The translations under genes were made by a program, and so were the position numbers. Below the pieces are notes generated by a model, which saw only the letters and a list, made by a program, of their open reading frames with translations, was not told the DNA's origin and did not search any database. A stretch of 56,923 nucleotides of DNA from a virus (taxonomy: Duplodnaviria; Caudoviricetes): the IMG/VR virus record IMGVR_UViG_3300018914_000073, positions 1-56,923 of that record; one strand, given 5' to 3'. Within the stretch, counting starts at the first letter, position 1; each line of letters starts with the position of its first letter. Shown here one piece after another: positions 45,750 through 47,791 of this stretch.

Positions 45750-46283
45750 ATGCCAACCGCGCAGCGCAAACCAGTTCTATCCCAGACCGCGAAGGAACGT
45801 CGCTCCCTCGCCACGGAAGCTCGTGCTGCTCTCGCCGAGGCTGACGGAGATGTCGTTGCAGCGACGTCTAAGCTCTTCCTCCGGGTGATTGAAGATCACA
45901 GCTTCATCAAGGAGTTTCTGTCCGAGATCGTCCGCAAAGCCTGTTACGAGGCCGTTGCCGGCCAAGTCCGCGCTGATCGGCGTCAGGTTTGGTCCACGCT
46001 CCAGCCGACAGCTGAGGCGCGCTCGGCTCAGGTCATGGCGCTTGCATCAGGTACGGTTCGGACCTTGCACGACTTCCCGCTCCCCGGCGGCAAGAAGCTT
46101 GGCGACGCCTTACGCGGGGAGGTCGTGGCGGCCGCAGACTTCTTCAGGGGCCAGGCCTCCGACATGGCTCGCAAGGCTCACTGGCTCCAGCACATCGCCC
46201 AGCATGTCCCCGACGGAAAGACCGTCCGCGACGTGCTCAGCGCCGAACGTCTCGCCGAACTCCGCGATGAGGTTTCCCAATGA
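45750..46283 (+). CDS. Hypothetical protein; candidate partner of the Tas-like protein
   Basis: GGAG RBS; helical 177 aa with LHDFPLPGGKKLGDA; stop overlaps the next ATG (ATGA). Confidence 0.8.
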   Translation: MPTAQRKPVLSQTAKERRSLATEARAALAEADGDVVAATSKLFLRVIEDHSFIKEFLSEIVRKACYEAVAGQVRADRRQVWSTLQPTAEARSAQVMALASGTVRTLHDFPLPGGKKLGDALRGEVVAAADFFRGQASDMARKAHWLQHIAQHVPDGKTVRDVLSAERLAELRDEVSQ

Positions 46284-47791
46284 ATTTCGATCCCGCATTC
46301 CGCCATCAGGCGGACGCTGCTGGCCAGCGACAGCACGATCTCAATCCAGGAGTCGCCAGCAGCGAAAGTTCCCCCACGGGGGGCTCTCTCGACCATCGAT
46401 CCAGCGCGATCCAACCCTCTGCCGTCGAGAGAGATCAATCCGGCTCCGGCCGGGCCGAGGGCCAGTCACCGCCTGAAGACCATGTCCTGCACGCCCTCGG
46501 TATCTCGTCCGCCAGCAATGGCGGGGATCTCGGCCACTTCCCGCATGCGACCCACGCATACCTCGCCGAGATCCAACCTTCCGGCGAGAGCCGGGCTGAG
46601 AGCCACGCAGCCAACGAGACCCATACATCCAACGCTCTCAGCACTCAATCCGACCTCGCGGTCGGGGACGCAGGTCAAGCTTCTCACGAAACCCAGAGGA
46701 AGCCTGCCTGCGTCCGAAAATCCCGCCGCAAGGCGGGCGGTGATGGTGACATTTTACCTGCGCACACCATGCATCACGCGCACCTCACTGAACCTTCCGC
46801 CGATGAGGCGGGGGCGATAGCCAAGAGCGTCACGCAACCCGGAGCGCAGTCGCTATCGCCCACCTCTTCCGAGCATAGGCTCGGAGGCGACCTTGGCCAC
46901 AGGATCTGTGTAGACCAAGTAGGCCGTGCCGAGGTCGCCAACAACATCGCCGAAATACGCATGCTTTGGCGCCGCCATCGCCAATGGCACCGTGCCGAGA
47001 AGAGCCTGACGCTTCAGGCATTCGCGGTCTGCTGGTCGTTTCTCGGCGGCGGCACCGAGAACAAGAAGCTCGCTGGAGCAATTCTAAAGCGGATTGAGGA
47101 AGGGACAGCCACACCCGACGACCTAGTTGCTGAGATTGGAGCGACGCCGCTTCTCAATGCACGCGGCGTTATCCGAGCCGAGCGTGAGGCTGTCGAGAAG
47201 ATGCTCTGCAAACTGGCCCGCAAGCTCCCAGTCTATCCGTGGGTGAAAAGTGTCTACGGTGCCAGTGAGTTCGCTCTGGCTAAGATCGTCGGTGAATGCG
47301 GCGATGTTGGTTCCTACAAGTCCGTGGCTGCCGTGTGGAAGCGCATGGGGCTTGCCGTGATCGACGGCGGCCGGCAGCGGCGCGCCAGCGGCGACGCAGC
47401 GCTCGAGCACGGATACTCGCCGGATCGGCGCTCCGTTATGTGGAACATCGGTGGCGGACTAATCGGTGGCATGGGCAAGGGCCCGCGCCCCGGCGTCGGC
47501 GAGGACATCTCCACCCGCGACGATCTCTCGCCCTACCAGAAGCTCTTTATCGAGCGTCTCCGGTACGAGGCCGAGTGCGACCCTGAGGCACACCGCAAGG
47601 AACCTGTGCTGAACACTAAAACAGGTGAACTGCGTGAGAGCTTCTCAGCTCATGCTGCTAACCGCGCCAAAAGATACGTCGAGAAGAGATTTCTCCGGGA
47701 TCTCTACTCGGCGTGGCGTCAGACCTCAGGAAATGTGCACTCCACAAAACGACCGTCTGACGCCCCTGCCCTCTTTGGAGAGCAAAACTGA
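46280..47791 (+). CDS. tasA: TasA-like RNA-binding protein (IS110 C-terminal/Nop-like domain, no recognisable nuclease domain); the first ~220 codons overlap the guide array
   Basis: LPVYPWVKSVYG...LAKIVGECGDVGSYKSVAAVWKRMGLAV and HAANRAKRYVEKRFLRDLY..WR resemble the IS110 Transposase_20/Nop fold; no DEDD RuvC or HNH motif; contains a dual-spacer array. Confidence 0.78.
   Translation: MNFDPAFRHQADAAGQRQHDLNPGVASSESSPTGGSLDHRSSAIQPSAVERDQSGSGRAEGQSPPEDHVLHALGISSASNGGDLGHFPHATHAYLAEIQPSGESRAESHAANETHTSNALSTQSDLAVGDAGQASHETQRKPACVRKSRRKAGGDGDILPAHTMHHAHLTEPSADEAGAIAKSVTQPGAQSLSPTSSEHRLGGDLGHRICVDQVGRAEVANNIAEIRMLWRRHRQWHRAEKSLTLQAFAVCWSFLGGGTENKKLAGAILKRIEEGTATPDDLVAEIGATPLLNARGVIRAEREAVEKMLCKLARKLPVYPWVKSVYGASEFALAKIVGECGDVGSYKSVAAVWKRMGLAVIDGGRQRRASGDAALEHGYSPDRRSVMWNIGGGLIGGMGKGPRPGVGEDISTRDDLSPYQKLFIERLRYEAECDPEAHRKEPVLNTKTGELRESFSAHAANRAKRYVEKRFLRDLYSAWRQTSGNVHSTKRPSDAPALFGEQN
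46299..46939 (+). ncRNA. TIGR-like stem-loop guide RNA array, 9 units
   Basis: Units recur at 69-76 nt spacing: small GC hairpin, 8-12 bp stem, (C)CA, 9 nt, YG-N4-CCA, 9 nt, YG, complementary stem; first box at 46324, 46393, 46462, 46534, 46603, 46675, 46749, 46821, 46897. Confidence 0.85.
47715..47764 (+). ncRNA. Tenth, isolated TIGR-like guide unit in the 3' end of the tas-like gene
   Basis: GGCGTCAGAC-CT-CAGGAAATG-TGCACTCCA-CAAAACGAC-C-GTCTGACGCC: perfect 10-bp stem and the same 9-9-9 spacing. Confidence 0.72.

Follow-up and report, generated by a model that had tools for sequence, protein, structure and literature searches.

TIGR-Tas systems are compact RNA-guided DNA binders that work free of a protospacer-adjacent motif. 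In the published stem-loop format of the TIGR array, each unit consists of a stem and two box-flanked spacers of 9 nucleotides (nt) (Faure et al. 2025, PMC12045711). TasR and TasH proteins carry nuclease domains at the N-terminus of the Nop core (PMC12045711), and those TasA proteins that have been characterised are DNA-binding repressors of transcription (10.64898/2026.09.09.750476). The general idea that guides are embedded in tas is already in a bioRxiv preprint of September 2026 (Xu et al. 2026, 10.64898/2026.09.09.750476), which catalogues 20,096 loci and in which small-RNA sequencing shows guide RNAs (tigRNAs) embedded in the B. longum TasA gene. The passages of the PlTasA preprint used here make no mention of such embedding (10.64898/2026.08.11.744272).

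Here we describe a tas locus in the IMG/VR record IMGVR_UViG_3300018914_000073, a tailed-phage contig of 56,923 nt, the whole of which we call the window. We consider, with a probability of roughly 0.78, that the locus is a stem-loop TIGR-TasA system in which a nine-unit upstream array and a tenth unit lie within the translated tas frame. It resembles the described stem-loop TIGR-TasA systems (Faure et al. 2025, PMC12045711; PlTasA preprint, 10.64898/2026.08.11.744272) in its solo Nop-domain Tas protein, its phage origin, its tandem units on the tas strand and its variable, consistently palindromic stems, which replace edge repeats. Unlike the arrays of the 2025 paper, which adjoin the gene (PMC12045711), every upstream unit of this locus is inside the open reading frame (ORF), and each linker holds an extra short hairpin.

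The guide array and the tas reading frame

The tas ORF spans positions 46280 to 47791 on the plus strand and encodes 503 amino acids (aa), comprising an array-encoded N-terminal part, the predicted TasA Nop core and a short tail that contains unit 10. As the initial annotation of this DNA had proposed, the array lies within the ORF of its own putative effector: frame 0 has no stop over 46280-46960, through all nine units, while the other two plus-strand frames have 4 and 7 stops and the minus-strand frames 3, 6 and 4. The ORF was also correctly described as opening with an ATG (46280) that overlaps the upstream TGA as ATGA, with a Shine-Dalgarno-like GAGG (46269-46272, plus strand) 7 nt before it. 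The only other in-frame ATG, GTG or TTG codons before residue 247 are at 46769 and 46961. Neither has a Shine-Dalgarno-like motif in the 21 nt upstream, which for 46961 agrees with the annotation's statement that no ribosome-binding site is evident there. The array makes up about 45% of the ORF (residues 1-220), and the G+C content by codon position over the array region (0.69, 0.54 and 0.67) resembles that of coding sequence. Taken by itself, the window offers moderate evidence for the open frame.

The nine upstream units, at 46315-46939, are built as a variable stem of 9-12 bp, CCA-N9-YG, N4, a second CCA-N9-YG and the returning stem. Unit 1 (46315-46364) has a 10-bp stem, CCA-N9-CG, ATCT and CAA-N9-CG. 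Stems of 10 bp are also found in units 2 (46384-46433), 4 (46525-46574) and 6 (46666-46715, with TCA as its first box), and stems of 9 bp in units 3 (46454-46501) and 5 (46595-46642). Unit 7 (46740-46788) is degenerate, with ACA as its first box and a one-base bulge in its stem, and its codon phase is shifted; unit 8 (46812-46861; 10-bp stem, second box CCG) is in the same phase as unit 7. The 3' half of unit 9 (46886-46939; 12-bp stem) encodes the first residues of the first predicted helix of the Nop core. Unit 10 (47715-47764, core 47724-47755) has a 10-bp stem, CCT-N9-TG, CACT and CCA-N9-CG, and sits at the 3' end of the ORF, in the part encoding the predicted disordered C-terminal tail, shortly before the stop at 47789. 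All ten units are on the plus strand and fit the pattern stem, CNA-N9-YG, N4, CCN-N9-YG, stem, in which box C (CNA) and box D (YG) flank each spacer. Six units match all 8 motif positions, and the other four match 7. The core-to-core spacings of the nine upstream units are 69, 69, 72, 69, 72, 74, 72 and 76 nt, exactly as first listed, and the last three sum to 222.

The array is not a product of chance. A strict form of the pattern, with a stem of at least 6 bp, matches seven times in the window, each time on the plus strand within 46393-46897, and neither this pattern nor our unit detector finds a match on the minus strand of the window. An inverted-repeat search returned five pairs with arms of 10-12 nt and exactly 30 nt between the arms. 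Across the ten units, 83% of stem cells are paired, compared with 55% in shuffles, and none of 500 shuffles reaches the observed value; pairing in slid controls is 36-46%, and 9 of the 12 pairs show double-sided changes. Tandem Repeats Finder reports nothing over 46280-46960, because the units share structure and motifs of 2-3 nt but not sequence. One further detector match, at 47871, has a loop of 9, a stem of 7 and 7 of 8 motif positions; we judged it probably spurious and left it out.

A short G+C-rich hairpin (4-7 bp, loop of 3-6 nt) precedes every upstream unit, mostly after TCC (46299-46885). The first of these nine linker hairpins, TCCGCC-ATCA-GGCGGA, is at 46299-46314 on the plus strand. 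The unit linkers are 19-26 nt long and are occupied by the hairpins, and CTT is found in 3 of the 8 linkers of the array. Linker hairpins are also present in the relatives L088, L017, L104 and L098, where spacings are about 69-90 nt. Among linkers of 14-40 nt, 36 of 49 contain a stem of at least 5 bp, compared with 7 of 49 after shuffling. These hairpins may mark processing sites or protect RNA ends.

The C-terminal part of the product is, as judged by sequence profile and predicted fold, a Tas Nop-domain protein, in line with the Nop-like domain first noted there. The family profile matches the TasR chain 9mty_A (E 6.3e-13), which belongs to the TasR ribonucleoprotein of Faure et al. 2025 (PMC12045711). 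In Foldseek searches of the PDB, the top nine hits are all TasH or TasR (probability 1.00, TM-score 0.45-0.53 by query). The C-terminal 276 aa have 2390 representative relatives at E <=0.001. Their matches nearly always start at query residue 2-3, preceded by N-terminal extensions of between about 0 and about 355 aa. Pfam assigns no family to the 503-aa protein. A PHROG 'transposase' match covers residues 293-489, with no Pfam or PHROG match N-terminal of residue 293. No nuclease domain was detected in the product by Pfam, PHROG or the AlphaFold2 (AF2) fold, and a Nop-domain Tas protein without a nuclease domain is therefore assigned to TasA.

The AF2 model of residues 201-503 has a predicted local distance difference test score (pLDDT) of 92.9. 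The predicted Nop core (residues 211-484; 46910-47731, plus strand) combines coiled-coil helices with an RNA-binding C-terminal domain, mostly at pLDDT 94-98. Its first helix covers residues 211-254 and begins 17 residues before M228, the methionine encoded at 46961. In the full-length model, almost all of residues 1-207, and residues 489-503, have pLDDT <50 and no secondary structure. On this basis, the array-encoded parts of the protein are the parts predicted to be disordered.

Frame, spacing and codon phase in related loci

Related loci were compared on raw frames anchored on tblastn matches, without gene calls. Scanning viral contigs with a single protein yielded one partial locus, and scanning genome contigs yielded four; the working set came from alignment-based scans of viral and metagenome sequences, and 165 related loci were retrieved in all. 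On the tas strand the detector reported 961 units, of which only the 813 with a 4-nt loop entered the counts; on the opposite strand it reported 68. For frame counts we required a tblastn match reaching query residue 12 or lower, which retained 121 of the 165 loci. A unit chain ending <=170 nt from the domain was present in 87 of these, and removal of near-duplicates (>50% shared 15-mers) left 73 non-redundant loci, 37 of them with at least three detected units. The window locus itself is counted in both sets.

In 58 of the 73 loci, no stop interrupts the tas frame over the upstream array. According to the initial annotation, in-frame stops would speak against embedding if they were common in homologous arrays, and they are not common. 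Among the 37 loci with at least three units, the tas frame is free of stops in 27, compared with 4 and 0 of 37 in the other two frames; the remaining 10 arrays do carry in-frame stops. Summed over the 37 arrays, stops number 23 in the tas frame and 100 and 178 in the other frames. Arrays downstream of tas served as a control and show no depletion in the tas frame, with 107, 82 and 77 stops in the three frames. The first downstream unit lies within the ORF tail in 28 of 68 related loci, as it does in the window.

Start codons differ between open and closed loci. In 53 of the 58 open loci there is no ATG between the end of the array and the start of the domain, and the first in-frame start upstream of the array is often preceded by AGGAGG, GGAGG or GAGG. 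Among the 15 closed loci, nine have an ATG 27-126 nt ahead of the domain, often with a Shine-Dalgarno-like motif.

New units had been predicted to be constrained to keep the frame, and the unit spacings bear this out. Multiples of 3 account for 105 of 150 spacings inside ORFs and for 21 of 80 outside them (7 of 33 upstream of an in-frame stop and 14 of 47 beyond the tas stop), and they form the majority of spacings in 17 of 21 other loci. At the level of sequence, relatives keep the tas frame open over their upstream arrays and resize units in codon steps.

The use of codon phase is uneven. Of 218 units inside ORFs, 118 are in phase 2, 97 in phase 1 and only 3 in phase 0. Phase 2 gives a peptide of the form G-[HQ]-x3-D-T-[HQ]-x3-A with a periodicity of about 23 residues, and phase 1 gives A-x5-P-.... 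In the window, units 1-6 and 9 are in phase 2 and units 7-8 in phase 1. The peptide echo noted at the outset is present in the phase-2 units and skips units 7-8 because these are read in another codon phase. The close relatives L088, L017, L104 and L098 use phase 1. As relatives read identical RNA motifs in two phases, the peptide sequence is not what is conserved; the nucleotides and the open frame are kept. Of 108 units outside ORFs, 54 lack a stop when read in phase 0, compared with 87 and 92 in the other phases; in phase 0, box D and the loop can form TGA. From stop content, about 23% of in-ORF units would be expected in phase 0, compared with the 1.4% observed, and stops explain the avoidance of this phase only partly.

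Two related loci have other arrangements. In L091, the tas frame continues without a stop for 474 nt as a C-terminal extension that contains all eight downstream units, whereas the other frames have 5 and 3 stops there; the embedded array, a whole one, lies at the 3' and not the 5' end. The upstream array of L095 has spacings of 111-114 nt because each of its apparent linkers contains another stem-loop unit, slightly different in format and missed by the detector, so that two unit types alternate.

Transcription, mechanism and alternative readings

The window carries genes for a large terminase, tape measure, baseplate, RecT and an exonuclease, as annotated by family. Its sequence also occurs in biocrust metagenome runs, as DNA contigs that may represent the source sample. 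The tas ORF is preceded on the plus strand by an ORF of 177 aa (45750-46283), whose TGA stop (46281-46283) overlaps the tas ATG. Downstream, the tas stop and the start ATG of the 75-aa ORF that follows overlap in a TGATG junction (47789-47793, plus strand), and a GTGA overlap at 48015 forms the junction after that. Four successive plus-strand ORFs (177, 503, 75 and 83 aa; 45750-48266) are joined by these ATGA, TGATG and GTGA overlaps, and because such stop/start overlaps recur at neighbouring junctions, tas looks like part of a translationally coupled gene chain. Such an arrangement points to an operon with translational coupling. Neither Pfam nor PHROG assigns a family to the 177-aa and 75-aa proteins. 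Upstream of the locus, 43975-44820 encodes a putative CI/LexA-like repressor (a weak helix-turn-helix match, with a Peptidase_S24 match just under the Pfam cut-off), and downstream, 49010-52146 contains an exonuclease, RecT and polymerase-exonuclease-like module. The repressor on one side and the recombination module on the other place tas in what is probably an early or recombination region of the phage.

We propose that initiation at 46280 would be coupled to the upstream gene and that ribosomes would continue across the array, producing a TasA with an N-terminal tail of about 210 residues that is predicted to be disordered. The tail would occupy the position of the TasR and TasH nuclease domains, and because those proteins carry nuclease domains there, a large N-terminal extension should be tolerated. 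The peptide sequence of the tail would not itself be under selection. This RNA may also serve as the precursor from which dual-spacer guides (9+9 nt) are excised between the stems. Binding of TasA to the units, or their cutting by RNase, would stop translation of that copy of the mRNA and tie protein output to guide output. This feedback of guide processing on translation, which the initial annotation had also put forward, is plausible but the least supported part of the proposal; Xu et al. likewise suggest a link between tigRNA maturation and Tas translation (10.64898/2026.09.09.750476). By analogy with the characterised TasA proteins, the TasA complex would bind and repress DNA without cutting it.

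We further suggest, tentatively and at odds somewhat short of even, that selection in this TasA clade keeps the passage of ribosomes through the array and not the encoded peptide, with a translated guide precursor coupling maturation to synthesis. This suggestion draws on four features of the clade: units are read in two phases that give unrelated peptides, the third phase is almost unused (3 of 218), more so than its stops account for, unit gain and resizing proceed in codon steps, and the domain no longer has a start codon of its own. If it is correct, nearly half of the ORF would be translated guide precursor, each transcript would give either protein or guides, and TasA would be an autoregulator acting on its own coding region.

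Several observations weigh against this account. Because 10 of the 37 related arrays carry in-frame stops, embedding is not obligatory. The window locus is among only 5 of the 58 open loci that have an ATG at the domain start, and a 276-aa product from 46961 is possible for this reason. In the two favoured phases, 81-85% of units outside ORFs contain no stop. A single open array is for this reason weak evidence, and the argument depends on comparing loci. In that comparison, the Fisher P for codon-step spacing (2e-10) is inflated, since units arise by duplication and the spacings of an array are therefore not independent of each other. Codon usage was not decisive as a test of array coding: the log-odds per codon are +0.04 for the array in frame 0 and +0.036 for its antisense, compared with +0.20 for the Tas domain and +0.23 to +0.30 for neighbouring genes. 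Unit 7 was identified by eye, as the detector misses degenerate units. Within the 56.9-kb contig, spacer pairs have no target at <=2 mismatches; at 3 mismatches there are nine matches, compared with 2 and 0 in two shuffles, and three of the nine are inside the array itself. No RNA sequencing run containing the tas locus was found. Finally, that one transcript is both mRNA and guide precursor is something we infer from a weak promoter match and the lack of terminator-like sites near the locus in a weak consensus scan. The sigma-70-like match (45695-45722, plus strand) lies upstream of the 177-aa gene and agrees at 9 of 12 positions, and a simple consensus scan finds one such match near the locus, where shuffled sequence gives a mean of 0.5.

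Among the alternatives, the one that survives best, although we regard it as unlikely, accepts that the frame is translated but holds that guides and mRNA come from separate transcripts, through internal promoters or a pool that is never translated, with no feedback on TasA synthesis. Genomic sequence cannot tell co-transcription from internal promoters, and neither could the data of Xu et al. (10.64898/2026.09.09.750476); the lack of an RNA run containing the locus leaves room for this explanation. It is disfavoured by the tight packing of the units, whose hairpin-filled linkers leave little room for promoters, and, more weakly, by the absence of any sigma-70-like match within 45723-48300 on either strand in the simple scan, since phage or host promoters may differ from this consensus.

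We consider it quite unlikely that the array is an untranslated leader or intergenic sequence, that a 276-aa TasA is made from the ATG at 46961-46963 (plus strand) and that the open frame is incidental, perhaps inherited from a translating ancestor. This ATG is exactly where the alignment to relatives begins, yet it lacks a Shine-Dalgarno-like motif, which the ATGA-overlapping start at 46280 has. M228 is aligned with residues that are not a conserved methionine (usually E or Q in relatives), and conserved residues (I..I) of the helix precede it, the AF2 helix itself beginning at residue 211. The array is outside the frame in 15 of the 73 related loci, nine of which use an ATG just ahead of the domain; on the other side stand the conservation of the frame across the family and the codon-step spacings, which include the 69, 69, 72, 69, 72, 222 pattern of the window. 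The near-zero codon-usage score and the intrinsic scarcity of stops in two of three unit phases also agree with an incidental frame. So does the G+C content of the contig (62%), at which spurious long ORFs are plentiful, although the other plus-strand frames of the array do contain 4 and 7 stops. Many long ORFs overlap on both strands of the contig, for example 9738-11309 (plus strand, 523 aa) opposite the tail genes, and ORF length alone is for this reason no evidence of coding here.

Finally, that the N-terminal 227 residues form a true tandem-repeat domain under protein-level selection, with the RNA stem-loops a by-product, is highly improbable: the peptide periodicity of about 23 residues and the coding-like G+C by codon position would fit such a domain, but what is conserved is nucleotides (CCA, YG) and compensatory base-pairing and not residues, relatives read the units in two phases to give unrelated peptides, the same units occur outside ORFs downstream of tas, AF2 predicts no structure (pLDDT <50), and no Pfam or PHROG family covers the region.

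Comparison with known systems and implications

The reading that we prefer, a guide array translated as part of the tas frame, has practical consequences for annotation. Annotation of tas genes in this clade should place the start codon ahead of the array, as their long low-complexity N-termini are guide arrays and not protein domains. How stem-loop guides are made and balanced with protein is an open question according to Xu et al. (10.64898/2026.09.09.750476). A complete upstream array within the ORF offers a clean natural test case for translation versus guide maturation on one RNA, and the family-wide conservation of the frame, the codon-step lengths and the loss of the proximal start codon add to its value.

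Beyond TIGR-Tas, the locus shares features with three other RNA-guided systems. The elements IS621 and ISCro4 of the IS110 family, which occupy Foldseek ranks 10-14 (E 0.03-0.08), have a related fold in the RNA-binding part, to which the PHROG 'transposase' match also points. Like this locus, they encode a structured guide RNA on the strand of the protein domain and 5' to it. The bridge RNA of IS110 elements, however, lies in an untranslated 5' region and not in an ORF, and is a single molecule where the phage locus has an array of many small dual-spacer units. No DEDD/RuvC-like catalytic domain of the IS110 type was found in the tas product by Pfam, PHROG or the AF2 fold.

TnpB and its omega-RNA provide a precedent for the feedback idea, as a guide RNA overlaps the coding sequence of its own effector. 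In TnpB, the effector mRNA is reportedly processed into the omega-RNA guide (PMC10278001). The RuvC nuclease fold of TnpB is unrelated to that of TasA, and the tnpB gene carries only one guide, at its 3' end, unlike the array at the 5' end described here.

Box C/D small nucleolar ribonucleoproteins (Nop5/Nop56/58) have in common with the locus the Nop domain, the box C/D logic and two guide segments per RNA. Their resemblance in fold is weak, Nop5 chains (3icx, 3id5 and 3pla) appearing at Foldseek ranks 21-26 with E 0.45-0.9 and TM-scores of 0.18-0.23, and the tas product does not fit a Nop5 fold with a fibrillarin-binding N-terminal domain. Eukaryotic small nucleolar RNA guides are also hosted in transcripts of protein genes, where they are located in introns and not in translated sequence.

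A close counterpart is formed by the intragenic tigRNAs of Xu et al. 2026 (10.64898/2026.09.09.750476), which, as in the window, lie inside the tas ORF, leave the frame unbroken and fall in segments predicted to be disordered. The B. longum TasA tested there differs in having its units upstream of the gene and within the internal wedge loop. The passages of that preprint used here contain no statistics on stop codons, codon steps or phase, though its figures or extended data may hold some. To the general idea of embedded guides, the present locus adds a clean example in which the whole upstream array and a 3' unit are inside one ORF. The comparison of its relatives adds counts for stops and start codons, for spacings in codon steps and for the phases used, together with the linker hairpins.

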